A stretch of 56,713 bases of DNA. Origin: an uncultured Gammaproteobacteria bacterium. GTDB taxonomy: Bacteria; Patescibacteriota; Microgenomatia; UBA8517. The DNA is taken from contig CAZCNT010000002.1 in NCBI GenBank assembly GCA_964500695.1, positions 1-56,713 of the forward strand, written 5' to 3'. The notes below the pieces were generated by a model, which was not told where the DNA came from, made no database searches, and saw only the letters and a list, made by a program, of their open reading frames with translations. The stretch's first letter is position 1. Every line of letters begins with the position of its first letter. The translations under genes were made by a program, and so were the position numbers. Positions 9,124-50,934 of this stretch are shown here, in pieces.

Positions 9124-9124
9124 T

Positions 9125-10174
9125 TTAGGCTACAAAGTACCCTCTGACAAAAAACATTGTAAGAATAAATAAAAGTATTCCCGAAATGAACAGCCATATC
9201 TTTTTTACCCTTTCCCCAAGGAAGCTTAGGGCAATAAAGATTGGAAAAAGTACAATTATGTATCTCGGAAGTCCGGAAAAAGTCCCACTAGAAACAGGAA
9301 GAAGAAACGCCAAGATAGAAAAAATAAGATAAGAGGTTCTGACTTTCTTCTTCCAGGCAAAATAAAGAAGAAGGGAAACCCCGATAAAGGAAGTCAGTTC
9401 TAAGGCCGCAATCCACCATTCATATTGACTAACAGGAAGACTCAGAAAGATTTTAAAATACCGATAGACCGTCTGAGGAAAGAGAACAATTCCGTTTGTT
9501 ACCCTTCCATTTCCCAGTTCCGAATGGGCATTAATAAAATAAAACCAGTCACCCCACTTCTTAAAATTAAACAAAGAATAAGCAAATAAACAAATGGGGG
9601 TAATTAATAACCAAAGATTAAACTTTTTTTTCTGTACATATTGTTCATAAATAAGAGCCGGAAGAATAAAAATTCCGATAAGTCGGGTTGCAGAAAGAAG
9701 CATTCCGGCAACAGATGCCCAAAACCACATTCCCCTCCTGGCAAAGTATAAAGATAGTATTAAAAGAAGGAAAAACAAACTTTCAGAATAGACCGCTCCA
9801 AAAAAAAGGGCTGTAGGGAATAGAAGCAATATCACTAAAACATCCCAACTTGTCTTTTCCTTGTAATCAAGTCTCAAGAGCTTGTAAAAAAAGTAAAGGG
9901 AAACAAAAAAGGAAATATTTGATATTAAAAAGCCGGAGAGAAACATTTGGTTTCTAAACGAAAATATTTTTATTAGAAGAGGGTAAAGAGGAAAAAAAAC
10001 TGCCTGATTTACATAACCGTTTGCTGCGATGGAAAGATAATGAACTCCGTCAAAGTTTGCCCAGGGGTTAATAGAAAGGTAGCCTGTCCTAAATATTATA
10101 AAATATCCTGCTAAAAAAACGGGGACAAAAAGGAAAAGCCTCCAAATCACAAAAGTTTTAAATACTTTTGCCAT
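9125..10174 (-). CDS. PIG-V-like (GT-C) mannosyltransferase-family membrane protein, paralog of 47728-48894
   Basis: NFDGVHYLSIAANGY..FFPLYPLL motifs, shared with the ORF at 47728-48894 (NFDGVHYLRLAQDGY..FFPVYPLL). Polytopic. I prefer the start at ATG 10174; the track gives 10219. Confidence 0.65.
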   Translation of the reverse strand: MAKVFKTFVIWRLFLFVPVFLAGYFIIFRTGYLSINPWANFDGVHYLSIAANGYVNQAVFFPLYPLLIKIFSFRNQMFLSGFLISNISFFVSLYFFYKLLRLDYKEKTSWDVLVILLLFPTALFFGAVYSESLFFLLLILSLYFARRGMWFWASVAGMLLSATRLIGIFILPALIYEQYVQKKKFNLWLLITPICLFAYSLFNFKKWGDWFYFINAHSELGNGRVTNGIVLFPQTVYRYFKIFLSLPVSQYEWWIAALELTSFIGVSLLLYFAWKKKVRTSYLIFSILAFLLPVSSGTFSGLPRYIIVLFPIFIALSFLGERVKKIWLFISGILLFILTMFFVRGYFVA

Positions 10175-11819
10175 TTTTAAATTCCAGTTTATAAATCTTG
10201 CATTGCGTATAACATTCATTCTGAACCTCGGTAAGTTTAAAGTCTTTACTTAATTCGTCAAAAGCTTCATGCAAATAAAATTCATTCCCCAAGCCGTATG
10301 TTGAGACATAAACAGGATATCCTTCCAATAGATATTTTTTGTAAATACCATGAAAGTCTGAATAGTCCTCGTATCCCCAGGCCGCCTCTTTGCTTTGTCT
10401 AAACTCTTGGTCTTTATCCAACGGTAAAAGTCTGTAATTACCATTGGAATAAAAATCTATGTAATAAGGAGGCATAGGTGAAATAACATATGGCATTTTA
10501 TCACCCAAGAATTTTCCCTTGGTAAAATAATCATTTAATCTTAATACCGAAATGTAATACCACGGGGTTTCCGCATATTTGAGATTAAGTGCGGTTTGAT
10601 ATCTAAGTCTTTGAAAATTCTTAAAAATATAAAGCCCCCCGATTATAAAAATACCTAATACGAAAACTGCATACAACTTTTTCTTACTGAGAAAATCCTT
10701 AACACAAAACAAAAAAAGGGAAATCCCCAATATTAGTGTCGGAACGGAATGGTAGATATATCTCATGTCTTGTGTACTAAATGTCGAAATAAATATTAGC
10801 GGAAGAGCCAACAGGAGCATAAGAGAAAACGAAAAATATCTCACCCCTTTTTTGAAAAGCCCCATAAACATACCTGTCCACGCAGGAAATATTAGATATT
10901 TGGGCAACAGGGGTGTGTAATCCCACAAAAACCGGGCTTTTTCTCCCAAGAGTCCCCTTACGTAAATAGGAAAATTTTTTTGAAAAAAAAGTTCTGAAAA
11001 CCATCCTCCGGAACCAACAAATTTATCACTTCCAATAACCAAATTGGCATTTCCGAAAGAAAAAGTTCCAACCAAAATATTAAAGTATCGAATCAGAGGA
11101 TTAATTTCTTGCATATATGATTGATAAATCAGAATAGGAAGAAATAATATTGAACTTAGAAGAATAAATAAGATCCCCAGCCTAACTCTATCGGTCTTCT
11201 TTTCCCATATCACCTTCAAAACGTAAAGGGCGACAAAAGTGCCGGCAAGGGGCAGGTACGCGTACTTTGTTGAATAAGACAAAAATGGAATTATCGAAGC
11301 AAAAATTATATTTGTCTTACTAACAGGTTTTATCAGAAGAAGAACAGCAAAAAGAAATATCGGTAAAATAAGATTTTCCGCCATAGCCCACTGGGGGTAC
11401 CAATACATATAGAAATTAGTGGTAAACAGAAAAAGACTTATGCCGATAATCCATTTGTCCTTTATGGCCAGTTTAAGAATCAGAAATAACAGATAGATCG
11501 AAAGCAAGGCAAGTGCCACATTGGCAAAATAATAGGTTCTCGGGTCGTTATTAACTAAGTAGAAAGGGGCAAGAAAGGCCGAATATAGCGGCGGTACGCT
11601 GGGGTTAATTACCCTCTCCTCTCTTATTATTTTGAATAGTCCGCCACTTACCATACTTCTAGCCGGCACAACATAATGCATGGAGTCGGGATAGGGTTCA
11701 AGATTTGGTATTAGGGTCCTTTGAGAATAAGGATTCCTGGCCAAAAGTACAAGAAAAACCACAACCGAGCTTAGAAAGAACAAGTCAACCAAACTTCTCA
11801 TCCTCAAAGATTTTAGCAT
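10158..11819 (-). CDS. Candidate GT-C-like polytopic membrane protein with a C-terminal soluble domain
   Basis: 553 aa. About 11 TM helices followed by a ~150-aa Tyr-rich C-terminal domain. The first loop contains EPYPDSMHY. The family assignment is tentative. Confidence 0.5.
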   Translation of the reverse strand: MLKSLRMRSLVDLFFLSSVVVFLVLLARNPYSQRTLIPNLEPYPDSMHYVVPARSMVSGGLFKIIREERVINPSVPPLYSAFLAPFYLVNNDPRTYYFANVALALLSIYLLFLILKLAIKDKWIIGISLFLFTTNFYMYWYPQWAMAENLILPIFLFAVLLLIKPVSKTNIIFASIIPFLSYSTKYAYLPLAGTFVALYVLKVIWEKKTDRVRLGILFILLSSILFLPILIYQSYMQEINPLIRYFNILVGTFSFGNANLVIGSDKFVGSGGWFSELFFQKNFPIYVRGLLGEKARFLWDYTPLLPKYLIFPAWTGMFMGLFKKGVRYFSFSLMLLLALPLIFISTFSTQDMRYIYHSVPTLILGISLFLFCVKDFLSKKKLYAVFVLGIFIIGGLYIFKNFQRLRYQTALNLKYAETPWYYISVLRLNDYFTKGKFLGDKMPYVISPMPPYYIDFYSNGNYRLLPLDKDQEFRQSKEAAWGYEDYSDFHGIYKKYLLEGYPVYVSTYGLGNEFYLHEAFDELSKDFKLTEVQNECYTQCKIYKLEFKNGKSI

Positions 11820-11840: not shown

Positions 11841-12512
11841 GTGATCATCTCAATTCACATACCTAAAAACGCTGGGGTAAGTTTCTATTCAACCCTTAAA
11901 GATATTTATAAAAACCGTTTGCAAATCGACTATCAGGATAAAATAGGCTCTATTGAATATTTGAGAAGAAATTTTGAAAAATACCCAAAAATAAAAAATT
12001 ACACTACCATTATTCATGGTCACTTTCAGGCTGAAAAATATCTAAAAAAATATCCACACGCGCAATTTATCACTTGGTTTCGGGATCCGGTAGAAAGAAT
12101 TGTCTCTCTTTATTACTTTTGGAAAAGAAAACCTGATTATAAAAACTCGACGTGTGTGAAAATGCTCGAAAAAAAGTTTAGCCTTTTAGAATTTGCCAGT
12201 ATGCCAGAAGTCAGAGATATGCAACCATATCTAATCAAGCCACTCAATTTAACAGATTTTAAATTTTTTGGGATAGTCGAACATTATTACATGAGTATGT
12301 TTTTATTTAAAAGTTCGATGGGTATCAGAAAACTTAACATTCATTACGAAAACGTTAATCCCAACAAGAAAAACGAAATGTATAATACAAGCCGCGAAGA
12401 AAGGAAAAGGATTAGAAACCTTAACAGAGAAGGTGCCAGGCTTTATCAAAAAGCTAAATTATTGTTTTACGCAAGATTCCTGTTCGCCGTCCTTAACCGT
12501 TTAATAGTATAA
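11841..12512 (+). CDS. Sulfotransferase family protein (family-2-like)
   Basis: N-terminal IHIPKNAGVSF matches the HIPKtgGtS PAPS 5'-phosphosulfate-binding loop of this family. GTG start. 223 aa. Confidence 0.6.
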   Translation: MIISIHIPKNAGVSFYSTLKDIYKNRLQIDYQDKIGSIEYLRRNFEKYPKIKNYTTIIHGHFQAEKYLKKYPHAQFITWFRDPVERIVSLYYFWKRKPDYKNSTCVKMLEKKFSLLEFASMPEVRDMQPYLIKPLNLTDFKFFGIVEHYYMSMFLFKSSMGIRKLNIHYENVNPNKKNEMYNTSREERKRIRNLNREGARLYQKAKLLFYARFLFAVLNRLIV

Positions 12513-12522
12513 TTACCTAAGT

Positions 12523-12867
12523 ATGAAATTCTTTCTTCTTGGCAGCTCTATGATTTTGGCTATTGTCGGTCAATTTTTATTGAAAAAAGGTATTCTATTA
12601 TCAAACCTTGCGCCAAATCTTGGATCTCTCATTAAAACCGTCTTTTCTCCTTTTGTTTTTTTTGGATTTATTGCCTACGGAGTATCCGCAATTATTTGGC
12701 TATTTGTTCTTCAAAAATTCCCTCTCTCTACCGCCTACCCCGCCCTTTCTTTGACCTATCTGGTTATTGTAGCCTTAAGCGTTATATTTCTGAAAGAACC
12801 AGTTACTCCTTTTAAGTTGGTTGGAATATTATTGATAATCTTAGGTGTATACTTCCTTTTTAAATGA
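12523..12867 (+). CDS. Small 4-TM DMT/EamA-half transporter, ArnE/ArnF-like candidate lipid-linked-sugar flippase
   Basis: 114 aa with four hydrophobic helices and an LSTAYP motif. Sits immediately upstream of two Dpm1/ArnC-like GT2 genes and overlaps the first. Confidence 0.6.
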   Translation: MKFFLLGSSMILAIVGQFLLKKGILLSNLAPNLGSLIKTVFSPFVFFGFIAYGVSAIIWLFVLQKFPLSTAYPALSLTYLVIVALSVIFLKEPVTPFKLVGILLIILGVYFLFK

Positions 12868-13592
12868 CAATACTCAAAACCATTTCTATTGTTATCCCCG
12901 TATACAATGAAGAGAAGTTTATTAAAAAAACAATAGAGGAAGTTATTAAAGCCGATTCTCTGGGATTAAAAAAGGAAATTGTTGTTGTAGACGATGGTAG
13001 TACGGATTCCACTACCTTAATTCTCAAGAAAATTAAGAATAAATCTGTAAAAAATAATCTAGTACTCATCCTCAAGAAAAAAAATGAAGGGAAAGGTGCA
13101 GCTCTCAAGGACGGATTCAAAAATACTTCGGGAGACATTGTTTTGGTGCAAGATGCCGACTTGGAATACAATCCTAATAACTATTCAAATCTTCTTATGC
13201 CAATTATTTCAGGACAAGCAGACGTAGTTTATGGATCAAGACTTGTTACGGCGGCACCACATAGGGTTCTATACTACTGGCACTATCTCGCAAACAAATT
13301 TCTGACTAGTTTTTCAAACGTGTTAACCAACCTTAACCTCACAGATATGGAAACAGGCTTTAAGATCTTTCGTGGAGATATTGTCAGGAAAATCGCCCCA
13401 AAACTGCAAAGTAAGAGGTTTGGTTTTGAACCGGAGATTACTGCAAGAATATCAAAAATAAGCGAAATTAAGATTTACGAGGTGGGAATTTCGTATTCCG
13501 GCAGAACCTACAAAGAAGGAAAAAAGATTACATGGAAAGACGGTGTCAAAGCCCTCTTTGAAATTATCAAATATAATCTATTTACTAGCTAA
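12864..13592 (+). CDS. GT2, Dpm1/ArnC-like polyprenyl-phosphate sugar synthase
   Basis: ISIVIPVYNEE..VVVDDGSTDST..GKGAALKDGF..VQDADLEYNP. Confidence 0.85.
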   Translation: MTILKTISIVIPVYNEEKFIKKTIEEVIKADSLGLKKEIVVVDDGSTDSTTLILKKIKNKSVKNNLVLILKKKNEGKGAALKDGFKNTSGDIVLVQDADLEYNPNNYSNLLMPIISGQADVVYGSRLVTAAPHRVLYYWHYLANKFLTSFSNVLTNLNLTDMETGFKIFRGDIVRKIAPKLQSKRFGFEPEITARISKISEIKIYEVGISYSGRTYKEGKKITWKDGVKALFEIIKYNLFTS

Positions 13593-13593
13593 C

Positions 13594-14307
13594 ATGCCTG
13601 TCAAAAAAACAAAAGAGGTTTCCCTAATAATTCCGGCCTTCAACGAAGAAAAAACTATCAAATCAATACTCGATAGATGCTTTAGCCTTGATTATGTAAA
13701 GCAAATAGTCGTTGTAAACGACGGATCAACGGACAACACAAAAGAAATTTTAGAAAAGATAAAGGAATCAAGAAGACACAAAAGTGTCGAGTTGTTTATA
13801 GTCCACCATACATTAAATTCGGGGAAAGGTGCCGCCATCAAAACCGGATTAAAGTACGTGAACGGAGAATATGTAATGATTCAAGACGCAGATCTTGAAT
13901 ACTCACCTGAGGATGTCAAAAACCTTCTCATTGAAGCCAATCGCTCGGAAGATAAAATCGTCTTTGGATCCAGAGGACATAATAAACGAAAGAGTTATTT
14001 TCTTGCATTGCTGGGAAATTATTATTTAAGCCTAATGTTTAATATACTATTTAACTACCGTCTAGAAGACAGTTATACTTGTTACAAACTTATTCCCAGA
14101 AAAATTTGGAAGGAATTGAACTTAAAGTCAACCGGATTCGAAATTGATTCCGAACTAATAGCAAAAATGGGGGTAAGGGGCTATAAAATTAAAGAGGTTC
14201 CCATCTCCTACAAACCCAGGACATTTCAGGAAGGCAAAAAAATCAGATGGACCGACGTACTCAAGGCTTCGAAGGTTGCTTTGGAAGTTCGCCTTAGAGG
14301 ATCTTAA
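13594..14307 (+). CDS. GT2, Dpm1/ArnC-like polyprenyl-phosphate sugar synthase (tandem paralog)
   Basis: VSLIIPAFNEE..VVVNDGSTDNT..GKGAAIKTGL..IQDADLEYSP. I prefer ATG 13594, one nt after the upstream stop, over the track start at 13543. Confidence 0.85.
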   Translation: MPVKKTKEVSLIIPAFNEEKTIKSILDRCFSLDYVKQIVVVNDGSTDNTKEILEKIKESRRHKSVELFIVHHTLNSGKGAAIKTGLKYVNGEYVMIQDADLEYSPEDVKNLLIEANRSEDKIVFGSRGHNKRKSYFLALLGNYYLSLMFNILFNYRLEDSYTCYKLIPRKIWKELNLKSTGFEIDSELIAKMGVRGYKIKEVPISYKPRTFQEGKKIRWTDVLKASKVALEVRLRGS

Positions 14308-14383: not shown

Positions 14384-14392
14384 TGTTAGAAT
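14384..14392 (+). promoter_or_regulatory. Candidate extended -10 box (tgttagaat) upstream of the radical-SAM operon
   Basis: TGnTAGAAT match lying 29 nt upstream of ATG 14422, in the only sizeable spacer (14308-14421) of this block. No good -35. Confidence 0.3.
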
Positions 14393-14421: not shown

Positions 14422-16104
14422 ATGACTCCAGAATACGTATCCGCAGAAACTGTATTTAATAGAGAGTTTGAAGCCCAAAAAGAGAAGGTCAGGGGCGTTT
14501 CTGTCTGTTTAATCACCCCTCCGTCACCGTTTTTGGCAGATGAAAGGGTTTTTCCGTTCCTTGCCCCCGCTAAAATAGCTGCAGAACTCATGAGAAATTC
14601 AAATCCCGTTGAACTGCTTGACCTCTCCGGATATTCTAACTTTCTGGATGTCACCAGGGAATACCTCCAAGACACTTCTATTCGCACTTTTGGGATCACT
14701 GCCACAAGCCCCCAAGTCCCCGCTGCCGTTGCCATAAGAGACGAAATTAAAGCGGCTTATCCAGACGCAAAAGTTATACTCGGAGGCCCACATGTTACTT
14801 TGACCCACGAGGCTATGAAACAGAACGTCAAATCCGGTACTACCGGGAGGGGAATCCACGATTTTGCAGAAATATCAGGTAGATTTGATAAATTAGTCGC
14901 CGGGGATGGTGAAATGGCCATTTTTTATGCGATTGATCCTTCGGATTCTAAAACCATCATCGACTCTTCCACTCCAACATCTCCCCTCTTCATGGCAAAA
15001 GGGAGTTTGGAAAAGTTTGGCTATCCGGCACGTCATATGATAGACCTTGATAGCTACCACTATTTTATAGATGGCCACAGAGCTTTTAGTCTGATCGCGC
15101 AGCTTGGATGTCCATTCGAATGTGGGTTCTGTGGAGGTCGAGATGTTGCTGCGTATAGAATTGCTCGGACAAGACCTATTGATAGCATATCGGAAGAAAT
15201 ACGGGAAGTAGTCTATAATTCAATTGACAGAGCCCTTCTTGATAACGATCCTAAAAAAGTATTAACCGGTGTCATGTTCTATGATGATGAGTTAAATGTC
15301 TCTCCGGCAAATTTAGAAAATCTTTGTATAGCACTCATCGATTTCCAAAAAAAATTAGCCCACCAAATTCCTGAGGATAAAAAGGAATGGCTTGGACTAA
15401 AAACAGAGGGCAGTGGTAATGACAAAAGAATTGCCATGAGGTTCAGGGGGTTTGTCAAAGCTGAGCTTTTCAGTCAAGAGCAGGCTAATCTGATGCACGA
15501 AGCGGGATTCAGAGTTTTACTAAGCGGGATCGAGTCGGGGTCAAATAAAATTCTCTCTGCTATGAAAAAACACACAACGAGAGAGATAAACAGCCGATGT
15601 GTTACCTTTGCACACAATGCCGGACTTAAGTTTAAAGCACTTATGTCTATTGGACACCCGGGAGAATCGGAAGAAACAATAAACGAGTCCATAGAGTGGG
15701 TTTTAGCAAACCTTAAAGAAGGGGACGAAGTTGACTGGACAATTATTACTCAGTACCCCGGTTCACCCTATTACGACCAATCGAATTACATTCCGGAAAA
15801 AAACGCGTGGCTATTTTCCGCTCAAGACAAAACAACTGGAGAAATACTGAATCTGTGGAGCAGGGCAACTAACTACATCGCCGATACACATTTTTATAAA
15901 GGCATTCCCGGGCAATACACCGCCTATGTATGGACAGACAAGCTTTCAAGTGTCGATCTGGTCAGACTCAGAGACAATGCAGAACAAATTACCAGAAGTG
16001 CCCTAAATATGCCATTTATAGAACAGGTTACTGCACGTCATTTTGAACATTCAATGGGTCAGGGATTGTCACACACGGCCTTAAGAAAATCCTCTGATTT
16101 CTAA
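14422..16104 (+). CDS. B12-binding-domain radical SAM enzyme (class B-like)
   Basis: CPFECGFC (CxxxCxxC) cluster at about residue 230. It follows a Rossmann-like N-terminal domain (..ITATSPQVPAAVAIRDEIK..VILGGPHVT), as in B12-binding radical-SAM proteins. 560 aa. Confidence 0.85.
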   Translation: MTPEYVSAETVFNREFEAQKEKVRGVSVCLITPPSPFLADERVFPFLAPAKIAAELMRNSNPVELLDLSGYSNFLDVTREYLQDTSIRTFGITATSPQVPAAVAIRDEIKAAYPDAKVILGGPHVTLTHEAMKQNVKSGTTGRGIHDFAEISGRFDKLVAGDGEMAIFYAIDPSDSKTIIDSSTPTSPLFMAKGSLEKFGYPARHMIDLDSYHYFIDGHRAFSLIAQLGCPFECGFCGGRDVAAYRIARTRPIDSISEEIREVVYNSIDRALLDNDPKKVLTGVMFYDDELNVSPANLENLCIALIDFQKKLAHQIPEDKKEWLGLKTEGSGNDKRIAMRFRGFVKAELFSQEQANLMHEAGFRVLLSGIESGSNKILSAMKKHTTREINSRCVTFAHNAGLKFKALMSIGHPGESEETINESIEWVLANLKEGDEVDWTIITQYPGSPYYDQSNYIPEKNAWLFSAQDKTTGEILNLWSRATNYIADTHFYKGIPGQYTAYVWTDKLSSVDLVRLRDNAEQITRSALNMPFIEQVTARHFEHSMGQGLSHTALRKSSDF

Positions 16105-16205
16105 TCCACTCTATGAAAGTGGTTAGTTTGTCTCCAGATAACCAGATTGTCAATCAGGCATATTAACTGAATTTTTCTGTTACAATAAATGAAGTAATTG
16201 ACATT

Positions 16206-16808
16206 ATGGAATTCTTTGAAGAAGAACTTTTGGAGCCAATAATTAGGCCAATCAGGTTTGCGAAGGGGCTAAAAAATATAGGACGTAAAAATCCTGTGAT
16301 ATTGGCAGATTTAGGATGTGGTCCAAAAATAAGATTTTACAATTACGCAACAATGCATAATATTCATTTTTCAAAATATATAGGAATTGACCCTCTCCTA
16401 TCCGATCGCATGATGAAAATAAACAGAAGAAAAAACATTCTTCTGATAAAGGATCCGTTAAAAAATCGAATTCCCCTTAAAAATAACTCTGTAGATTATA
16501 TTACTGGCTTTGCGTTTATCGAACATGTTGTGAACCCTGTCGAAATATTAAATGATGCATTAAGAGTTCTAAAACCTGGAGGAAAAGCAATTTTTACTAC
16601 TCCGACAAAAAAAGCAAAAGGGGTTCTTGAATTTCTGTCTTTCAAGCTTGGCATAATTAGTAAGGCCGGGGTACGCGAACACAAAAACTATTTTGAAAAA
16701 AAGGATCTGATGAGTATGGTAAATGCAAAAGCGTTTTCCACCCGCTATGAATACTTCGAATTCGGCTTTAATAGCCTTTTTGTGATAGAAAAAACTCATG
16801 GGCAGTAA
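16206..16808 (+). CDS. Class I SAM-dependent methyltransferase
   Basis: LADLGCGPK (motif I) and LKPGGKAIFTTP (post-II). Confidence 0.85.
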   Translation: MEFFEEELLEPIIRPIRFAKGLKNIGRKNPVILADLGCGPKIRFYNYATMHNIHFSKYIGIDPLLSDRMMKINRRKNILLIKDPLKNRIPLKNNSVDYITGFAFIEHVVNPVEILNDALRVLKPGGKAIFTTPTKKAKGVLEFLSFKLGIISKAGVREHKNYFEKKDLMSMVNAKAFSTRYEYFEFGFNSLFVIEKTHGQ

Positions 16809-18483
16809 GTACACCAAGCACATACTTTTTGTAGTTGCACTACTTTTTATTTTCAGGGATTTGGTGGGGAATATGTCAACGAACCTACCTGATTGGCGGG
16901 ACTATGCTTTCATCACTTGGATAACAAACCAGAACATAAACCATATTAAAACTCTCGACTTTGCAAACATATTCAATACCAATGCCTTTTTCCCCCATAC
17001 AAACACCCTCTTTCTATCCGAAACTTTTTTTACTCTGTCTCTTGTAGGCCTACCGATTTCACTTTTTGTAAAAGATCCAATCATATTATTTAACTTGTTA
17101 TTTCTACTAACTTTCGTTCTGAACTATGTCAGTTCATTTCTGTTCTGGAAAAAAATAACAAAGTCCGAGGGTGTGGCATTCATTGGTTCAGTGGCTACCG
17201 TTTTTTCCCCCTATTTCTATGCACAGTTTGGCCACTTTCAAATGATCACATATTGGCCACTAATGTTCTCCTTATATTTTCTTGTAGAGAGCAAAAGAAA
17301 CAAAAAGAAATTATTTCTGGTCGGTCTTTTTCTTGCCATACAATTTCTTGCCAGCGTATATCTCACATATTTCCTTTGTGTCGCAATATTGCTATACCTA
17401 TTCTTTGACTTTCTCAAAAACCGAAACATCAAAAGTGTGCTTGTGTCATTTTTTATAATATTTTCTTTGTTTTTAACGCTAGATGGGGTGTTTATCAAAG
17501 GCTACATGAATACCCAAAAATACTTTGGGGTTAAAAGAGAGTACGGTGAATACGTTGGCTACTCTGCCCATTTGACCGACTATCTATTTCCACGACAGCA
17601 AAGTTATCTGTACAATAATACTTTCTTCAAAAAGTGGAATGCCTACAACAAACACAATTTGGGCGAGGTTGCATCATTCCCCGGATTCGTTCTCACAATT
17701 ACAGCTCTCCTCGGAATTTTCGGATTTAAGAATTCTAAAAACTCCATCGTGGTCATGTTCAAAAAAGAGGTAGAGCGATATTGGTTTCTTTCGTTAGCTA
17801 CTATTGGATTTCTTTTTTCACTCGGACCGCGTCTAAATTTTAATGGTGTCTACAGCGGAATTCCCACTATTTATACATTGCTACTCAAAATTCCTTTTGT
17901 TGAGGCCATCAGAGGCCTTGAGAGATGGTCATTTTTGTTTTACTTCGGCCTTACTTATTTTTCTCTCCTTTATATAAAAACTATTAAGAGAAGATCTGTA
18001 CTCTTCATCGTATTGACCATTCTCCTCCTTGAACTTATGCCCTTTAAAACGCTAACTTATGCCGGCTCCTATATCACCAATAACGACGAAGTGCTCAGGG
18101 ACATCTGTTCTATTCAAAAAACAGCAATTCTGGAAATACCGGTAACCCATTTCGACACAACCGGGTCTATCGCTGAAGGTGTAAGCTATATAACTACAAG
18201 AGAGCTCGCCACTTTGTATAATCATTGTCACCTGATAAACGGTTATACCGGATACGACTTACCAAGCATTGCAAACACCAAAAACCAAATTTACGAATCA
18301 ATCGCCAGCAAAGACAGTCAAGGCTTTTATAAAACAATCAGCGAATCTGGTGCGCAAATCCTTGTCTTAAACAGAAAAAACCTTTTACCAGAGACAATAA
18401 CAACTTTTAACAAGTTCCTGCTAGAACTTGTTAAAACTTCACAGTTAAAACCACTTGGGAAGGATGTGTATAAAATAAATTAG
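16798..18483 (+). CDS. Candidate GT-C-like polytopic membrane protein with a C-terminal soluble domain
   Basis: 561 aa. About 11 TM helices followed by a ~140-aa C-terminal domain. Family not recognised with confidence. Confidence 0.5.
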   Translation: MGSKYTKHILFVVALLFIFRDLVGNMSTNLPDWRDYAFITWITNQNINHIKTLDFANIFNTNAFFPHTNTLFLSETFFTLSLVGLPISLFVKDPIILFNLLFLLTFVLNYVSSFLFWKKITKSEGVAFIGSVATVFSPYFYAQFGHFQMITYWPLMFSLYFLVESKRNKKKLFLVGLFLAIQFLASVYLTYFLCVAILLYLFFDFLKNRNIKSVLVSFFIIFSLFLTLDGVFIKGYMNTQKYFGVKREYGEYVGYSAHLTDYLFPRQQSYLYNNTFFKKWNAYNKHNLGEVASFPGFVLTITALLGIFGFKNSKNSIVVMFKKEVERYWFLSLATIGFLFSLGPRLNFNGVYSGIPTIYTLLLKIPFVEAIRGLERWSFLFYFGLTYFSLLYIKTIKRRSVLFIVLTILLLELMPFKTLTYAGSYITNNDEVLRDICSIQKTAILEIPVTHFDTTGSIAEGVSYITTRELATLYNHCHLINGYTGYDLPSIANTKNQIYESIASKDSQGFYKTISESGAQILVLNRKNLLPETITTFNKFLLELVKTSQLKPLGKDVYKIN

Positions 18484-18488
18484 ATTGC

Positions 18489-19559
18489 ATGGCGGCTAAA
18501 ACTGTTAAAAACCTCAACAGCAAGATTTACTACCAAGGACAGTATTGGAATGATCTCCCGCAAGTGCAAAATTATATTGCGAAAAGTATAACCGGAGACG
18601 AAAATAAATGGTGGGTAGAATATTTTAAACAGAAATACGCCACTACCCCCTTTCACCATGGCCTATTTTTAAATTGCGGTGACGGAAGATGGGAAAGAGA
18701 ATTTATCGACAGAAAAATCGTAAAAACAGCTACCGCATTTGATGTGTCTCCAGATTTTATTAAGAAAGCCTTACTGCTAAGAGGTAAGAGAAAAATAGAA
18801 TACATACTTGCAGATGCTAATAAAGTCAAATTGCCAAAAAACAAATACGATCTTATCGTTAATTATGCTGCCCTTCATCACACCCAATACATTAACCGAT
18901 TATGCAATGTATTGGCCAATTCGCTAACGCAGGACGGTATTTTTTTAAATTTCGATTATGTAGGTCCCTCAAGAAATCAATATCCTATTGTTAATTGGTT
19001 AATATTGAAATTGGTAAATAACACGCTTCCCAAAAATCTTAAAAAAACTACTCTCGGATACCCCCACTTACCCACAATGCTTGCAACCGATCCGACAGAA
19101 GCCATACACTCGAATTTAATTGTTGACAGCGTGTCTAGATTTTTTAATATCACAGAGAAACGCAACACCGGTGGCGGCATTGCCTATGAGATATTAACCC
19201 ACAATACAAATCTCAATAAAAAAATTATCTCCTTAAAAAAATCAAAAAAACATATACAAAGACTTCTGAAGTTGGATAGAATATTTACAACACTAAAAAT
19301 AGTTCCTGTTTATTTCTCATTTTTCATTGCTTCAAAAAAATCTCAAAGAGACGTCAAAACTGCGTACTTTCAGCAGATTGAAAACATTCGAGAAAAATAC
19401 TCTCTTAAACTTGAAAACACATATACACTTTTTAATTTCCTTGTGATGTTTAAACACTATCGATCCTGGAGAAAAAGAGCTAAAATGACCGGAGATTACA
19501 TGATATACACATTGGCCAGAGTCGCGAGTCTTTTTTTAGCATTCTTAAAGCACATATGA
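18489..19559 (+). CDS. Class I SAM-dependent methyltransferase with a C-terminal hydrophobic tail
   Basis: LFLNCGDGRWE (motif I-like), DLIVNYAALHH, LTQDGIFLNFDY. Confidence 0.7.
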   Translation: MAAKTVKNLNSKIYYQGQYWNDLPQVQNYIAKSITGDENKWWVEYFKQKYATTPFHHGLFLNCGDGRWEREFIDRKIVKTATAFDVSPDFIKKALLLRGKRKIEYILADANKVKLPKNKYDLIVNYAALHHTQYINRLCNVLANSLTQDGIFLNFDYVGPSRNQYPIVNWLILKLVNNTLPKNLKKTTLGYPHLPTMLATDPTEAIHSNLIVDSVSRFFNITEKRNTGGGIAYEILTHNTNLNKKIISLKKSKKHIQRLLKLDRIFTTLKIVPVYFSFFIASKKSQRDVKTAYFQQIENIREKYSLKLENTYTLFNFLVMFKHYRSWRKRAKMTGDYMIYTLARVASLFLAFLKHI

Positions 19560-21652
19560 AAAGGTTGCTCATATCTTTATTTTTCTTTTTTTACCTCTTT
19601 CTATCGTTGTTCGTATCGGGAATCGTAGATTCGCAAGACGGTCTCCAATATTTAGCTGTGGCACGCAATCTTTATTACCAACATGAACCAACGGCTCCTG
19701 TTTATGAATATGGAAACGAAGGTGGGTGGAAAAATATCCATATGAGTACTTTTGTCGGAAGGAACGGCAAAACTTACACTTTAACGGGGTTGGGATTTTC
19801 TCTGGCAATGGTACCATCAGTTGCTCTTGCAGATATTTTTTACAAAATCTACAATTTAACACCTAGTATCCATTTCCCCCTCGAATCAGATTGGATAATC
19901 CTATTTACTACAAGTTTTACAAACATATTCTTTGCAGCAGTTCTGGCTATTACCATTTTTTCATTTCTGATTCTTATTAAAGTTTCCCAACAAAACGCAT
20001 TAATTATAACTGTCCTTGCTTTCCTGACTACCAATCTTTTCGCTTTTTCTAAACACATCACAGCACACATGATGTTCGCCTGTTTTTTGACTCTTAGTTT
20101 CTATTTCTTAAAAAAATATTCAATTAACAAAAGAGCGCTCTTCATATTCTTGTCGGGGATCACTTTCGGAATTCTTCTTATTACCTACAACAACACTTTT
20201 ATGCTGACAATTCCGTCTATCATAATCTATTATCTTTTAATCACCAGAACAAAAATTGATCGTCGTTTTATAATAAATGCTTTTAAGGATTCTGCATTAT
20301 TTCTCTTGGGTGCAATGCCGTTTTTTTTACTATATCTGTGGTATGAGAATACCCGAGCGCCAACCGATGCCATACTTTCATCTCCAACCTTCTTGGCATT
20401 TTATACAAGCACCAGAACTTTAAAAGTCCCCCTTACTGTTTTTTTTGAAGGTATATATGGACAGCTTTTAAGCTCCGGTCGCAGTATTTTTATTTACTCT
20501 CCGCTTTTACTGGTCCCATTAATATTCTGGCATAAATTCAAAAAGGACATACTTCCCGAAATTATTTCTTGGACAATTTTGGCAGCAACTTATATTCTTT
20601 TCTACTCCACATTATTCTCAGACGGGGGACCGGGGCAAGGAGTAACCGCTCTGTGGTCTGGAGAGGCTAGTTGGGGTCCAAGGTATTTAGCGCCACTTAT
20701 CCCTTTCGGAGTGATACTCTCAGGATATATATATCAAAAGGTAAATAAAATGGGAAAGGTTCTGGTTTTTCTTCCTCTCTTATTGTTTGGGTTTTATGTT
20801 GAAATATTAGGAGTTTTAATGCCCTACCAAATTAAATTGCACCACCTTGAAGCACACTTTTACGTAAATCAGACTGAGTATACATCATACGCATATAGCA
20901 ATCTTCTACCCAGATATTCTCCAATAATAATGATGAGCAAAAATCTCGTAAGATTAATAAAGAATTTCAAAAGCAGGACTTTCCCCGGAAATTTCAACAC
21001 AAAATTCTACGATGGAATAGACTTCGCTTTTGATGTGGGATCGGAAAGATGGAGAGTGGTTCAAGGCACAGGTTACATATCGTTTAATAACGGCATCGAA
21101 GATGTGAAGAATATTACTTTTGACATGATCAACCACCCTATTGCCGACACGAAAGAGCCTCTCTATTTGGACTTCGCCCTTAACGGTAACAAACTAAACG
21201 ACGTTCCCTATATACTGAAAATCGGTGAGAGGAGAAAAATTATTCTAAGCATAAACCAGACTCTTCTTAAGAATACAGAAAACACGTTAATGGTTAATAG
21301 TAGTTATAAGAATCCTAGAGTCACCAAAGACAAAGACAACACCCAGCTGCCCGCAATAATCAACATGTGGATTAACGGTAAGTCGATTAACAAGGAGCAC
21401 ATATCTGTCCCCTACATTTCAGCTCTTGGCCCCAAAACGGCTGGGATTTCTTACAAAAATTGGGGAGGGACAAACATAGACCCATGGCTGTCGTGGAATA
21501 TCCACACACAAATCTATGAACGTACACCTGATTTCTGGTGGTTACGTCCTATCTATTACTGGGATGTTAACAAAAAACCGTTTATTTTTCTTTTTATTGC
21601 CAACCTTGTCGGCGTTGTGTTTTTTACTTATAAACTGAGGAAAACTATTTAA
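19556..21652 (+). CDS. Candidate GT-C-like polytopic membrane protein with a ~250-aa C-terminal extracytoplasmic domain
   Basis: 698 aa. The first loop has DSQDGLQY. Many TM helices, a beta-rich C-terminal domain and a final TM helix. ATGA overlap with the upstream gene. Confidence 0.5.
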   Translation: MKRLLISLFFFFYLFLSLFVSGIVDSQDGLQYLAVARNLYYQHEPTAPVYEYGNEGGWKNIHMSTFVGRNGKTYTLTGLGFSLAMVPSVALADIFYKIYNLTPSIHFPLESDWIILFTTSFTNIFFAAVLAITIFSFLILIKVSQQNALIITVLAFLTTNLFAFSKHITAHMMFACFLTLSFYFLKKYSINKRALFIFLSGITFGILLITYNNTFMLTIPSIIIYYLLITRTKIDRRFIINAFKDSALFLLGAMPFFLLYLWYENTRAPTDAILSSPTFLAFYTSTRTLKVPLTVFFEGIYGQLLSSGRSIFIYSPLLLVPLIFWHKFKKDILPEIISWTILAATYILFYSTLFSDGGPGQGVTALWSGEASWGPRYLAPLIPFGVILSGYIYQKVNKMGKVLVFLPLLLFGFYVEILGVLMPYQIKLHHLEAHFYVNQTEYTSYAYSNLLPRYSPIIMMSKNLVRLIKNFKSRTFPGNFNTKFYDGIDFAFDVGSERWRVVQGTGYISFNNGIEDVKNITFDMINHPIADTKEPLYLDFALNGNKLNDVPYILKIGERRKIILSINQTLLKNTENTLMVNSSYKNPRVTKDKDNTQLPAIINMWINGKSINKEHISVPYISALGPKTAGISYKNWGGTNIDPWLSWNIHTQIYERTPDFWWLRPIYYWDVNKKPFIFLFIANLVGVVFFTYKLRKTI

Positions 21653-26376: not shown

Positions 26377-27615
26377 CTATTTCAATAACTTTCGCTTTTT
26401 GAGGTCTTCGGCAAAGTTTAAAGCCAGTTCGACATCCATCTTCAATTCCTGGGCGATTTCTACCACAGACCTTTTTCCGTCAATCATGTAACCAAAAAGT
26501 TCAAGCTGCCAATCTTCCGGACGTTTATCGAGAAACCAGCCTATTTTACCTCTCATAAGAGGTCCCACCCATTCCCTTCGGGGCACAAAATCTCTGTCAA
26601 AATTGCGTATAATCTTTAATATTAAACGCCTTCCGTTCTCAAGAGCTTCTTTACTAATAATTGATGGATTGTCAAGATGAGTGTGGTACTCTTCATATGG
26701 CCAAGTGGTAATCATCACTGCAGGAATATTAATTTTAGGGTCATTAAATATCAGCTCATCCGATCCTGTTAGCTCTCTGAATTCCAATATTTCGTGTTTT
26801 AATTTCAGATTCCTACATGAACTCTCACATGCGTAATTTAGTGGATGCTTTCCATCAAAAGTCTTTTGCACTAAAATTCTGTTTTTGTTTCCCAAAATGT
26901 CTATTACAAGAACGGCTTTGATATTTTTTAAATTCTTAATTCTTCGGGCCACATATGCAATAGAGCCAATCGTTTCCGGTAAAAACAAGAATCTAATCGT
27001 GTGATTAATCTTTTTAGATTTTATTTCCTGCGCGACCTTGATTGCAACTGCAACCGCCGATAAATTATCATTTGCCTGATATGGATGGTCCACATGAGCA
27101 ATAACTAATATTTCTTTCTTGGTCTTACCTTTAATAACAGATTCTCCTATTGTTAGATACCCTTTCTTATACGCAACTTTAATCGAAACTTTATATCTAT
27201 GTTTCCTGTTAAGTTTCTTGTATTGATTCTCACTCAGGCAGAAACCCCAATCCAAATTGTAATATGGAAAAACATAAGGAATTGCATTTTTATTCTTGCT
27301 AAAAAAACATTTATGCCTTAAATGTTTATCAAGTTCTGCAAAAGTCACAACTCCCTCAAAAGGGAGTGAGCCCACAAAAAGGTGTAGCGGGTTATTTTTG
27401 TAGTCTGCCACCAATCTTCCTGTCACCTCATCAATCAAGGTGGCGGCGGATACTTCCCACTTATCGGGAATTTTCCACGTAAAACACTTTGTCCCTGAAG
27501 CAATTTTAATAAACTTTAGAGGCAAATATTCTGAAATTATATTCATCGCTTTGTCTTCCCCGGCACTAACCAATGCACGATTGAACGGATATAGTCTTTT
27601 TATAATTTTCAGCAT
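26377..27615 (-). CDS. Aminopeptidase-like (M28-fold, COG4310-type) protein with a C-terminal winged-helix domain
   Basis: LVIAHVDHPYQANDNLSAVAV core, an N-terminal ..PFNRALVSAGEDKA.. segment and a C-terminal SVVEIAQELKMDVELALNFAEDLKKRKLL. From memory, this domain combination (DUF2172/DUF4910/HTH) recurs in polysaccharide loci. Confidence 0.5.
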   Translation of the reverse strand: MLKIIKRLYPFNRALVSAGEDKAMNIISEYLPLKFIKIASGTKCFTWKIPDKWEVSAATLIDEVTGRLVADYKNNPLHLFVGSLPFEGVVTFAELDKHLRHKCFFSKNKNAIPYVFPYYNLDWGFCLSENQYKKLNRKHRYKVSIKVAYKKGYLTIGESVIKGKTKKEILVIAHVDHPYQANDNLSAVAVAIKVAQEIKSKKINHTIRFLFLPETIGSIAYVARRIKNLKNIKAVLVIDILGNKNRILVQKTFDGKHPLNYACESSCRNLKLKHEILEFRELTGSDELIFNDPKINIPAVMITTWPYEEYHTHLDNPSIISKEALENGRRLILKIIRNFDRDFVPRREWVGPLMRGKIGWFLDKRPEDWQLELFGYMIDGKRSVVEIAQELKMDVELALNFAEDLKKRKLLK

Positions 27616-45695: not shown

Positions 45696-45696
45696 T

Positions 45697-48894: not shown

Positions 48895-48935
48895 GTATGC
48901 CGGATGGACTAATTATACCGCAGGGAAGACTTTAT

Positions 48936-50892: not shown

Positions 50893-50893
50893 T

Positions 50894-50934
50894 CACTATT
50901 CACTAATCACGAATCACCAATCACGTTCACTGAT
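50894..50934. repeat. Heptanucleotide array, about 6 units (cactatt cactaat cacgaat caccaat cacgtt cactgat); right bracket, inverted relative to 50495-50522
   Basis: Read directly from the sequence. It begins 1 nt beyond the ATG (50892-50890) and contains the stop codon (50927-50929) of the upstream GT-C gene. Confidence 0.8.

Follow-up and report, generated by a model that had tools for sequence, protein, structure and literature searches.

In the Arn (ArnC-ArnD-ArnE/F-ArnT) and Gtr (GtrA-GtrB-Gtr*) systems, a polyprenyl-phosphate monosaccharide made by a GT2 glycosyltransferase is handled by a small 4-TM flippase and then by a GT-C enzyme outside the membrane. Arn furthermore includes ArnD, a cytoplasmic tailoring enzyme that acts on the lipid-linked sugar. 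To our knowledge, no Arn or Gtr system with a radical SAM (rSAM) enzyme is known. MoeK5 takes as its substrate a lipid-phosphoglycerate-linked sugar. Together with GenK and GenD1, it is a class-B Csp3-methyltransferase. That sugars attached to lipids can undergo radical chemistry has precedents in HpnI-HpnK-HpnJ, which form the hopanoid cyclitol ether, and in the calditol synthase Cds; for both HpnJ and Cds, the reactions are so far proposals.

An earlier note on the DNA analyzed here had regarded an envelope-glycan role for a class-B rSAM enzyme as undescribed, and we agree with that assessment, as such a role is absent from two 2026 reviews and was not found in literature searches. Our analysis suggests that a large, uncharacterized family of such enzymes, a member of which is carried here by a groundwater CPR bacterium, acts in a sugar-tailoring step that has not yet been described.

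RESULTS

Genes surrounding the rSAM gene

The window, by which we mean the whole stretch of 56,713 nucleotides, contains a block of genes (Table 1) that is syntenic in its entirety in a relative at 74% identity. The five open reading frames from the rSAM gene onward have the coordinates given in the earlier note, and their last three junctions are overlapping or near-contiguous, as it had described (11-nt overlap, 5-nt gap, and 4-nt overlap). The genes that are functionally linked to the rSAM gene, encoding a candidate flippase and two GT2s, sit upstream and had been overlooked.

Table 1. Coordinates of the features discussed in the text
Feature	Position	Strand	Basis or remark
Small 4-TM EamA/DMT protein, 114 aa; ArnE/ArnF-like candidate flippase for polyprenyl-phosphate-sugar	12523..12867	+	
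Short soluble GT2, DPM1/ArnC/AglJ-like; candidate polyprenyl-phosphate sugar synthase	12864..13592	+	Pfam Glycos_transf_2 1e-33
Second short soluble GT2, same type	13594..14307	+	Pfam Glycos_transf_2 1.4e-31
Extended -10-like box TGTTAGAAT, 30 nt 5' of rSAM ATG	14384..14392	+	TGATAATAT at aligned position in 74%-identity relative
Radical SAM enzyme of class-B architecture; soluble, 560 aa, one Fe-S motif	14422..16104	+	Pfam, NCBIfam, homolog alignment, model
CPFECGFC, CxxxCxxC radical-SAM cluster motif (C230, C234, C237; residues 230-237)	15109..15132	+	
Weak hairpin right after rSAM stop, possible partial terminator	16106..16122	+	5-bp stem, 3 GC pairs, T-rich tail
Second extended -10-like box TGTTACAAT, 20 nt 5' of MTase ATG	16178..16186	+	TGATACAAT at aligned position in relative
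Class I SAM-dependent methyltransferase, 200 aa, soluble	16206..16808	+	Pfam Methyltransf_11/23
GT-C-fold glycosyltransferase, DUF6311 family, 561 aa, polytopic	16798..18483	+	PF19830 precomputed; Foldseek
Class I SAM-dependent methyltransferase, 356 aa	18489..19559	+	Pfam Methyltransf_11/25/12
Divergent PMT/ArnT-type GT-C glycosyltransferase, 698 aa	19556..21652	+	NCBIfam LA_3751/3752 putative glycosyltransferase 8.5e-5

The candidate flippase, with about four TM segments, matches Pfam EamA (1.3e-8) and, below the respective NCBIfam cut-offs of 99 and 92 bits, ArnF (2.9e-14, 53.5 bits) and ArnE (1.1e-10, 41.6 bits); its gene is likewise syntenic in the 74%-identity relative. For the first GT2, AglJ, ArnC, and PgfS are the best NCBIfam matches, with DPhHxTase and PpgS lower, while the second matches AglJ (3e-32), PpgS (6e-18), and ArnC (2e-17). 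All of these matches are under the cut-offs, with bit scores for the first and second GT2 of 97 and 112 (AglJ), 74 and 63 (ArnC), and 45 and 65 (PpgS). The longest reading frame of the second GT2 begins at 13543; gene calls on sister contigs vary, some corresponding to a start at 13594 and others lying earlier, and the protein is called as 237 aa in L083 and L084.

Downstream of the rSAM gene, Pfam bears out the two methyltransferases (MTases) of the earlier note as class I SAM-dependent enzymes. Its two polytopic membrane proteins are indeed polytopic, but their identity as GT-C glycosyltransferases had gone unrecognized. The first carries a conserved LxDWRDY motif after TM1, D35 is nearly invariant, and the top 18 Foldseek PDB matches of its model (pLDDT 88) are all GT-C enzymes, led by DPY19 (1.6e-6) and AftD (TMq 0.59) and followed by PglB, AglB, STT3, ArnT, Pmt4, AftA, and ALG3. 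In the second, the conserved TM core is followed by a C-terminal region of approximately 230 aa that is not part of it. Its distant relatives, about 500 aa in length, cover residues 1 to 470 in alignments, and 8 of the 10 that were tested have Pfam PMT/PMT_2.

Identity and fold of the rSAM protein

The class-B (B12-domain) architecture that had been claimed for the rSAM protein, with a CPFECGFC cluster behind a cobalamin-domain-like N terminus, is supported by motif, Pfam, and modeled fold alike. The protein matches Pfam Radical_SAM (E=9e-13), and the three Cys residues of its cluster are invariant in an alignment of 24 homologs. Its match to the B12-binding Pfam family (E=2e-7, 31.3 bits) is just under the gathering score of 32.1; PF02310 is annotated in 119 of 120 among the homologs listed. 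The class-B-typical motifs GGPHxT, GDGE, and YDDELN are conserved in the family, and many Arg and Lys positions are invariant in the 24-homolog alignment, which would be compatible with a phosphorylated substrate.

Subfamily membership was called when the score of the whole protein reached the curated NCBIfam cut-off. By this standard, the protein fits no curated subfamily and belongs to none of the well-characterized nonglycan subgroups, the check that the earlier note had proposed. All scores are far under the cut-offs: PhpK, 82 bits versus 600; HpnJ, the second-best match, 75 versus 577.6; MgmA, 48 versus 360; the AprD4 equivalog NF033070, 46 versus 500; BchE, 38.5 versus 481; HpnR, 29 versus 650; and Trp 2-C-MT, 17 versus 500. 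RiPP C-methyltransferases and a ladderane lipid rSAM are also weakly matched. The window holds a second rSAM, whose best NCBIfam match is HpnJ at 96 bits.

The AlphaFold model (pLDDT 89, pTM 0.89) consists of an N-terminal Rossmann-like domain, with strands at residues 28 to 32, 63 to 67, 89 to 93, 117 to 121, and 157 to 161 and helices between them, and an rSAM barrel. As a whole, it matches TsrM, AprD4, MgmA, OxsB, TokK, and CysS in Foldseek. Among solved structures, AprD4 has the top TM-score (0.58/0.70, at 17% identity in the structural alignment) and is also the best by sequence profile (E=1.1e-17, versus 2.7e-8 for TsrM), the sequence match spanning the rSAM core only. The profile of the N-terminal domain alone finds no significant solved B12 domain, the best being 4q37 (E=0.07).

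The most conserved stretch of the N-terminal domain is the loop after beta-1, which in class-B enzymes is the site of the residue beneath the corrin; in the 24 aligned homologs, its conservation would fit a bound cofactor. Since AprD4 and ArsL fall within the class-B sequence network yet bind no cobalamin, the fold cannot show cobalamin dependence. No cobalamin uptake or salvage genes were found within the 57-kb window. The earlier note had taken the lineage to be probably unable to make cobalamin; in one study of groundwater CPR bacteria, cobalamin was among the few vitamin pathways not missing from most MAGs.

Base composition and transcription signals

The rSAM gene is the GC-richest of the window (0.436 versus a mean of 0.373; z=+2.7), as had been noticed by eye. 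The separate ancestry drawn from this does not follow, as the excess falls on codon positions 1 and 2 (z of +1.8 and +2.6) and thus reflects amino acid composition, while GC3 (0.398; z of +1.2) is inside the range of the neighbors.

Before the rSAM gene lies a TGnTAGAAT-type box, as the earlier note had stated, but the spacer that holds it (114 nt) is not the only clear one, and a second of 101 nt separates the gene from the first MTase. The 101-nt spacer contains a weak hairpin, which is not conserved in the 74%-identity relative, where the corresponding spacer is 35 nt, and a second box. Both TGnTAnAAT boxes keep their positions in that relative, the rest of the spacers having diverged. Over the window, such boxes occur at chance level (16 versus 16.9 expected), but intergenic DNA, 3.5% of the window, holds 4 of the 16 (P=0.002), all four in the correct orientation and 7 to 30 nt upstream of starts. 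Because of the internal box before the MTase and the positional conservation of both boxes, the proposed role of the rSAM gene as head of a five-gene operon is doubtful; as judged from these signals, it is probably its own transcription unit.

Spread and genomic context of the family

The rSAM family comprises more than 4,000 homologs, which are spread over CPR, DPANN, Elusimicrobiota, Nitrospirota, and Acidobacteriota and consistently sit in glycan loci; cultured carriers include Acanthopleuribacter pedis and Sulfidibacter corallicola. In species-representative genomes, 314 loci were confirmed. In the 80 loci used for neighborhood statistics, glycosyltransferases make up about one third of the 136 immediate neighbors (30 GT2 and 17 GT1/GT4, beside 9 MTases, 6 NTP-transferases, and 6 epimerases), the commonest direct neighbor being a short polyprenyl-phosphate-type GT2. 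Relatives of the first GT2 of the window (at least 130 bits) lie at most 1.5 kb from the rSAM gene in 17 of the 80 loci, from five phyla. Of the 80 loci, 31 have a short GT2 within 2.5 kb, 25 have an MTase within 2.5 kb, and 37 have a polytopic membrane protein within 5 kb; 11 loci combine the three, and approximately 30% have none of them nearby. The composition seen in the window recurs in a Nitrospira locus (GT2-MT-rSAM-10TM protein) and on a Nanoarchaeota contig, and in L090, the rSAM gene is translationally coupled to an MTase gene. NAD-dependent epimerase/dehydratase-family genes, ordinary content of glycan loci, occur in 31 of the 80 loci, their median distance being 5 kb; none adjoins the rSAM gene in the window. 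Precursor-peptide, RiPP, or lipid-synthesis genes do not recur among the immediate neighbors in the 80 loci.

Outside close relatives, the MTases and GT-Cs downstream of the rSAM gene are not conserved with it; direct coupling is therefore deduced from the present lineage alone, and by gene neighborhood, the partnership with these four genes is specific to the lineage and not conserved.

DISCUSSION

The analysis showed the fold and motifs of every component of the block, the order of its genes, and a glycan context that recurs around members of the rSAM family. With this context recurring across phyla and in archaea, we consider an envelope-glycan role of the rSAM enzyme to be very likely. That its substrate is a sugar, linked to either a lipid or a nucleotide, seems reasonably probable. 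The combination of a candidate flippase, two GT2s, and two GT-Cs leads us to read the block as an Arn/Gtr-type lipid-linked-sugar pathway with rSAM and MTase tailoring; whether the rSAM protein is the cytoplasmic tailoring enzyme of such a pathway, decorating the cell surface via lipid-linked single sugars, we regard as an even call.

For this pathway, we infer what the rSAM enzyme acts on, its need for cobalamin, the type of reaction, how the steps are ordered, and what the sugar is finally attached to. The two short GT2s would transfer sugars from nucleotide sugars to polyprenyl phosphate at the inner membrane face. The rSAM enzyme would then reductively cleave SAM at its single [4Fe-4S] cluster and abstract hydrogen from an unactivated carbon of the polyprenyl-phosphate sugar, or of its nucleotide-sugar precursor. 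The reaction could be a C-methylation, a dehydration, or a ring contraction; in the most likely outcome, methylcobalamin held by the Rossmann domain at the N terminus would donate a methyl group to yield a C-methyl sugar, and we propose cobalamin-dependent C-methylation specifically only tentatively. Further methyl groups, probably on oxygen, may be added by the two class I MTases. The ArnE/F-like protein would flip the lipid-linked sugar, and the two GT-C enzymes would transfer it to an extracytoplasmic acceptor, which may be a glycan, the S-layer, or another surface protein.

An alternative that keeps the sugar substrate is a cobalamin-independent, AprD4-like radical dehydratase, in which hydrogen abstraction beside a vicinal diol is followed by loss of water. 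The product would be a keto or deoxy sugar, and the Rossmann-like N-terminal domain would be structural or bind substrate instead of cobalamin. AprD4, the best solved relative by both profile E value and TM-score, acts on a sugar and does so without cobalamin despite its class-B network, solved B12 domains are not significantly matched by the sequence of the N-terminal domain here, and many members of the family come from CPR and DPANN, both of which have reduced cofactor biosynthesis. We nevertheless consider this reading unlikely, as the AprD4 equivalog scores under PhpK and HpnJ, the sequence match to AprD4 is confined to the rSAM core, a conserved AprD3-like reductase does not stand out among immediate neighbors, and the conserved loop after beta-1 agrees with a bound cofactor.

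The rank of HpnJ as second-best NCBIfam match, and as best match of the second rSAM, would instead favor a radical reaction that contracts the ring of a lipid-linked hexose or forms a carbocycle from it, similar to what has been proposed for HpnJ (BHT-glucosamine to cyclitol ether), Cds (calditol), or OxsB; the result would be a cyclitol-type surface decoration. The pairing of the glycosyltransferase HpnI with the putative rSAM HpnJ parallels the adjacency of GT2 and rSAM, and OxsB is a significant structural match. Such a reaction appears quite improbable, since HpnJ scores far under its cut-off, an HpnK-like deacetylase is not conserved nearby, and carbocycle transfer, which this reading would demand of a GT-C, has no known precedent. 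Finally, the glycan genes might be merely colocated with an enzyme acting on the polyprenyl lipid carrier, a surface protein, or a peptide. Class-B enzymes do methylate or cyclize isoprenoid lipids (HpnP/R, GrsA/B, and Gmm) and peptides, in line with the weak NCBIfam matches to RiPP and ladderane lipid enzymes, but the absence of recurrent peptide, RiPP, or lipid-synthesis genes beside the family, whose most specific recurrent neighbors are sugar-activating and sugar-transferring enzymes, makes a nonsugar substrate very unlikely.

Extended to the whole family, radical tailoring of lipid-linked sugars would mean a cross-domain modification of polyprenyl-phosphate-linked monosaccharides directly after a DPM1/ArnC-type GT2, perhaps cobalamin-free in CPR and DPANN, a speculation to which we give rather low probability. 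If true, GT-Cs would decorate the cell surface from a C-modified sugar donor, whether this is C-methyl-branched, deoxy, or ring-contracted.

Comparison with known systems

GenK, GenD1/GntE, Fms7, and MoeK5 resemble the rSAM protein in having a Rossmann-like N-terminal domain followed by the barrel and a single CxxxCxxC motif. They target a sugar carbon, which is presumed for the enzyme of the window; in contrast to these GenK-type enzymes of actinomycete antibiotic pathways, the rSAM family is found in envelope-glycan loci of CPR, DPANN, and other phyla. AprD4 (PDB 6FD2), a radical SAM 1,2-diol dehydratase of apramycin biosynthesis, likewise has a sugar substrate and a Rossmann-like N-terminal domain but differs in its reductase partner, none being seen beside the rSAM gene, and in its sequence (17% identity); AprD4 itself binds no cobalamin. 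The hypothetical-equivalog family TIGR04295 (B12_rSAM_oligo) also consists of uncharacterized B12-domain rSAM proteins, which its curators presumably tied to an oligosaccharide-type gene cluster. The weak match of our protein (E=1e-4, 21 bits versus a cut-off of 400) indicates a different family, and TIGR04295 provides a computational precedent for the general idea.

HpnI/HpnJ and Cds follow the same logic as proposed here, wherein a hexose is placed onto a membrane lipid and an rSAM enzyme then remodels the sugar; here, by contrast, polyprenyl phosphate would serve as the carrier, and GT-Cs would take over the product. From the Arn and Gtr systems, the block differs in which sugar is transferred, in the acceptor, and in its host, a CPR bacterium that probably lacks an outer membrane. 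It nonetheless parallels them in its GT2s as candidate polyprenyl-phosphate sugar synthases, its small 4-TM candidate flippase, and its GT-Cs, with similarities that all lie below equivalog cut-offs.

Results

Our analysis ties the B12-domain-type radical-SAM enzyme of this locus, and apparently its whole family, to a lipid-linked-sugar route that would feed GT-C glycosyltransferases. The five open reading frames described in the earlier note, the radical-SAM gene followed by two class I methyltransferase (MTase) genes and two genes for membrane proteins, were all recovered, as were the CxxxCxxC cluster and the tight packing of the last three junctions (an 11-nt overlap, a 5-nt gap, and a 4-nt overlap).

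Features of the radical-SAM locus and of the surrounding window
Feature	Position (nt)	Strand	Basis or remark
Wzy_C-type ligase/polymerase, Wzx-type flippase, Wzm/Wzt ABC exporter (Wzt C-terminal domain)	100-1560, 44556-46455, 46473-47723		
Eight recognizable GT-C glycosyltransferases	within 5843-11819, 16798-21652, 47728-55466		four PMT_2/PMT, two PIG-V-like, one DUF6311, one divergent PMT-like
Two polytopic proteins without class	7258-9123, 10158-11819		
First gene of co-directional block	11841-12512	+	weak sulfotransferase-family matches only (E about 2e-3)
TGnTAnAAT box TGTTAGAAT	14384-14392	+	30 nt 5' of radical-SAM ATG
Radical-SAM enzyme, 560 aa	14422-16104	+	ORF; Pfam Radical_SAM and B12-binding
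CPFECGFC, residues 230-237	15109-15132	+	motif in radical-SAM protein
Insertion AHQIPEDKKEWLGLKTEGSGNDKRIA, ~27 aa, residues about 311-337	15352-15432		barrel region of radical-SAM protein
Weak hairpin in second spacer	16106-16122	+	terminator scan
TGnTAnAAT box TGTTACAAT	16178-16186	+	20 nt 5' of MTase start
MTase, 200 aa	16206-16808	+	ORF
GT-C glycosyltransferase, DUF6311, 561 aa	16798-18483	+	family and fold match
MTase, 356 aa	18489-19559	+	ORF
Putative divergent ArnT/PMT-type GT-C, 698 aa	19556-21652	+	remote relatives
TGnTAnAAT box	22590	-	
PseG-like gene; NeuB/PseI-type synthase fusion, 601 aa	23579-26376	+	
M28/DUF4910 gene	26377-27615	-	
MTase, longest ORF	27440-28324	+	GTG start
TGnTAnAAT box	27628	-	
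TGnTAnAAT box	27643	+	
Second class-B radical-SAM gene, 560 aa	28386-30068	+	22% identical to first
TGnTAnAAT box	30098		
Gene without assignment, 340 aa	30119-31141		
TylC3-type sugar C-methyltransferase	34422-35702		

Since a sequence search of both membrane proteins against the PDB gave no match, fold and remote-homolog routes were needed. The top 18 PDB matches of the 561-aa protein model (pLDDT 88.3) were all GT-C glycosyltransferases, including DPY19, AftD (TMq 0.59), PglB, AglB, STT3, ArnT, Pmt4, AftA, and ALG3, and the protein carries a near-invariant acidic motif, LxDWRDY, after its first transmembrane (TM) segment. The 698-aa protein weakly matched a putative glycosyltransferase family in NCBIfam; an exhaustive search retrieved many relatives of ~500 aa, aligned to residues 1 to 470, and eight of ten relatives tested are Pfam PMT/PMT_2 proteins. 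It appears to be a divergent ArnT/PMT-type GT-C enzyme.

Upstream of and co-directional with the radical-SAM gene lie a 114-aa, 4-TM EamA protein matching ArnF (2.9e-14) and ArnE and two short soluble GT2 glycosyltransferases, whose best NCBIfam matches include the polyprenyl-phosphate sugar synthases AglJ, ArnC, PpgS, and DPhHxTase. From these component matches, the block reads candidate flippase, GT2, GT2, radical-SAM enzyme, MTase, GT-C, MTase, GT-C. Its synteny is complete in a relative at 74% protein identity, and more than 20 groundwater contigs carry an identical block. The sulfotransferase match of the first co-directional gene, if real, would suggest sulfated sugars.

The radical-SAM gene had been thought to head an operon behind the only clear spacer of the block. 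The TGnTAGAAT-type box reported in that spacer is present, and the gene is in fact flanked by two spacers (114 nt 5' and 101 nt 3'), the second with a weak hairpin and its own box. Both spacers are diverged and shorter in the 74% relative, and each keeps a TGnTAnnAT box at the matching aligned position (TGATAATAT and TGATACAAT). Across the window the TGnTAnAAT motif is not enriched (16 observed versus 16.9 by chance), yet intergenic DNA, 3.5% of the window, holds 4 of the 16 matches (P=0.002), all rightly oriented and 7 to 30 nt 5' of a start. Counts in sigma-70 and terminator scans of the window were no different from those in shuffles; the placement of the TGnTAnAAT boxes alone was informative. 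Given this placement and the positionally kept boxes in the two spacers, the radical-SAM gene is most likely a separate transcription unit, and the MTase-GT-C-MTase-GT-C genes most likely have their own promoter, with read-through possible. No part of the locus was found in metatranscriptomes from the same studies, and no tRNA or Rfam family in the window.

Boxes of this kind precede starts by 7 to 30 nt in most of the window's few intergenic spacers, with a back-to-back divergent pair near 27630, and this extended -10-like form may be the organism's usual promoter. Taken as the longest ORF, one MTase gene (27440-28324) shares 176 nt with the divergent M28/DUF4910 gene; its translation probably begins 3' of the promoter-like box at 27643.

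The radical-SAM protein matches Radical_SAM (E=9e-13) and B12-binding (E=2e-7; 31.3 bits, slightly under the gathering score of 32.1) in Pfam. In NCBIfam it approaches no curated cut-off: the strongest partial matches are PhpK (82 bits; cut-off 600) and HpnJ (75 bits; cut-off 578), followed by TIGR04013, MgmA, and AprD4 (46 bits versus 500). We therefore did not obtain the BchE, HpnP, or coproporphyrinogen-type assignment that the earlier note had set against a glycan role, and membership in the BchE, HpnJ, HpnR, PhpK, AprD4, MgmA, or similar families is rejected by scores far under their cut-offs. No TM segments are predicted, and since the homolog alignment conserves no Cys besides the three of the motif, the enzyme would hold a single cluster. 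The barrel-region insertion occurs in just 6 of 24 aligned homologs, the window protein among them.

A model built from the 24-sequence alignment (pLDDT 89.1, pTM 0.89) has five N-terminal strands alternating with helices, then the radical-SAM barrel, and then a C-terminal sheet. Foldseek matched it in the PDB to TsrM (E=2e-18) and AprD4 (E=6e-17, with the top TM-score, 0.58/0.70), then to MgmA, OxsB, TokK, and CysS, and then to MiaB and RimO; a sequence profile searched against the PDB placed AprD4 first (1.1e-17) with MgmA and TsrM next. These matches confirm a class-B architecture for the modeled enzyme. The proposal of a cobalamin-domain-like N terminus held to that extent, but a profile of the N-domain alone had no significant match to any solved B12 domain in the PDB (best, 4q37, E=0.07, via GGPHVT and GDGE motifs), and any cobalamin use is putative. 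In the homolog alignment, N-domain conservation peaks in the PSPFLADERVFPF loop that follows strand 1 (PPSPFLADERVFPF); it is here that class-B enzymes position the residue under the corrin (2026 review). As a sign of cobalamin binding, this loop is suggestive, not decisive.

The 57-kb window contains no cobalamin uptake or salvage genes and no phosphonate genes. In one study of groundwater CPR, cobalamin is named as one of the few vitamin pathways that most MAGs do not lack, so the premise of a lineage unable to obtain cobalamin is unsafe either way.

The radical-SAM gene is, as had been noticed by eye, GC-rich, the highest of 50 genes (0.436 versus a mean of 0.373; z=+2.7). The reading of this as a sign of separate ancestry did not hold: GC3 is normal (0.398; z +1.2), under the 0.413 of the neighboring GT-C gene, and the excess sits at the first two codon positions (z +1.8 and +2.6), which gives no evidence of recent transfer. 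The pattern appears to be that of a Gly/Ala/Arg-rich, strongly conserved soluble enzyme amid AT-rich membrane-protein genes, and the second radical-SAM gene repeats it, with GC3 below average. The closest named relatives, from Woesebacteria and Daviesbacteria, are consistent with inheritance inside CPR.

A word-seeded search returned 4,485 proteins at E<=1e-5. Identity to the window protein is still 46 to 49% at rank 87 to 120, a Nanoarchaeota protein included, and it is 43 to 58% to members in CPR, DPANN, Elusimicrobiota, Nitrospirota, and Acidobacteriota; judged from these alignments, the family appears large and conserved to an unusual degree. Scanning a single genome of each species gave 314 confirmed loci, in CPR groups, Nanoarchaeota, Elusimicrobiota, Omnitrophota, Nitrospirota, Acidobacteriota, Planctomycetota, and others, with Acanthopleuribacter pedis and Sulfidibacter corallicola (Acidobacteriota) and Nitrospira defluvii as cultured carriers. 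The 49% identity between the window's CPR bacterium and Nanoarchaeota (L009 / L088, P0087) equals that to many bacterial phyla, which suggests that the gene moved between CPR and DPANN or their hosts.

Context was counted in the best 80 of the 314 loci. The window's four downstream genes are essentially absent there (BLAST and profiles find L008 and, marginally, L070); since BLAST and profile HMMs match them in close relatives only (L008, L085-87), they are ruled out as conserved partners of the family, and the neighborhood conservation sought for the proposed operon does not extend further. The 136 immediate neighbors, sorted by Pfam family, include GT2 (30), GT1/GT4 (17), Glyco_trans_1_2 (12), class I MTases (9), NTP-transferases and epimerases (6 each), and Wzy_C (3), and the glycan context is general. 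In 17 of the best 80 loci, from Patescibacteria, Elusimicrobiota, Acidobacteriota, Nitrospirota, and Rokubacteria, relatives of the window GT2s (>=130 bits) are found no more than 1.5 kb from the radical-SAM gene. Within 2.5 kb, 31 of the 80 have a short GT2 and 25 a class I MTase; 37 have a protein of at least 400 aa and at least 7 TM segments within 5 kb; 11 have all three and 56 at least one. The membrane partners vary (Wzy_C with TPR, YfhO, PMT_2, DUF2079, unclassified), all belonging to extracytoplasmic glycan assembly.

Individual loci illustrate this context. A Nitrospira locus (L060) reads GT2, MTase, radical-SAM enzyme, 10-TM protein; one from Daviesbacteria (L006) has a GT2, a cluster-c6 NTP-transferase (GalU-like by eye), the radical-SAM enzyme, a GT2-MTase fusion, and a DegT aminotransferase. 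In another (L090), the radical-SAM and MTase genes are translationally coupled and accompanied by two short GT2s and PMT_2/YfhO-type proteins, and on a Nanoarchaeota contig the gene sits amid GT4, GT2, PMT_2, and MTase genes.

Elsewhere in the window, the second class-B enzyme gives a canonical match to Pfam B12-binding (53 bits), and its top NCBIfam match is HpnJ (96 bits, far under the cut-off); an MTase gene and a gene without assignment flank it, and NDP-sugar genes with a TylC3-type C-methyltransferase follow downstream. A PseG-like gene precedes a fusion of NeuB/PseI-type nonulosonic acid synthase and CMP-sugar cytidylyltransferase, which would imply a sialic-acid-like sugar pathway in this bacterium. 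For a CPR genome, eight predicted GT-C enzymes in 57 kb would represent extracytoplasmic glycosylation on an unusually large scale, and the Wzy_C, Wzx, and Wzm/Wzt genes in one locus suggest at least two glycan export routes beside the lipid-linked monosaccharide route.

Discussion

The best-supported reading is that the radical-SAM protein may act as a cytoplasmic tailoring enzyme for a sugar bound for a lipid-linked, GT-C-dependent route. Its substrate would be a nucleotide sugar or a polyprenyl-phosphate sugar. The latter is attractive because a DPM1/ArnC-type GT2 is the most specific recurrent neighbor and because ArnD offers a precedent, tailoring its sugar at the lipid-linked stage. Further precedents come from the literature on lipid radical-SAM enzymes, in which the hopanoid enzymes HpnI, HpnK, and HpnJ and calditol synthase represent radical chemistry on lipid-linked hexoses.

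Three observations lead us to rank first, among candidate reactions, a cobalamin-dependent C-methylation like those of GenK, GenD1, and MoeK5 (2026 review of B12-dependent enzymes): intact class-B motifs, strong conservation of the N-domain loop, and a second class-B gene in the window with a canonical B12-domain match. The structural closeness of AprD4, together with the limited cofactor metabolism of CPR and DPANN, keeps a cobalamin-free dehydration alive; AprD4 and ArsL belong to this sequence network, and their Rossmann-related domains bind no cobalamin (2026 review). A further candidate beside the favored methylation is the kind of ring contraction proposed for HpnJ, Cds, and OxsB.

If the reaction were worked out, it would define a new sugar modification, shed light on the cell surfaces of CPR and DPANN, organisms that rely on host contact and whose surface chemistry is almost unknown, and decide between cobalamin scavenging and a B12-free form of the fold in such reduced organisms. 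The cultured carriers open this question to testing.

B12-domain radical-SAM enzymes occur in antibiotic, cofactor, lipid, and peptide pathways. As the earlier note held, an envelope-glycan role is not yet described: it is absent from the functions catalogued in the 2026 review of B12-dependent enzymes, the 2026 review of lipid-modifying radical-SAM enzymes mentions no polyprenyl- or undecaprenyl-linked substrates, and targeted full-text searches found no such role. An Elusimicrobia paper with B12-radical-SAM genes was set aside as a precedent, as it concerns nitrogenase-paralog clusters and a different family.

In conclusion, both the enzyme superfamily and the logic of glycosylation are familiar, while their combination and the reaction would be new. 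The block would follow the same logic as the Arn pathway and Gtr-type three-component glycosylation, to which it adds tailoring enzymes.
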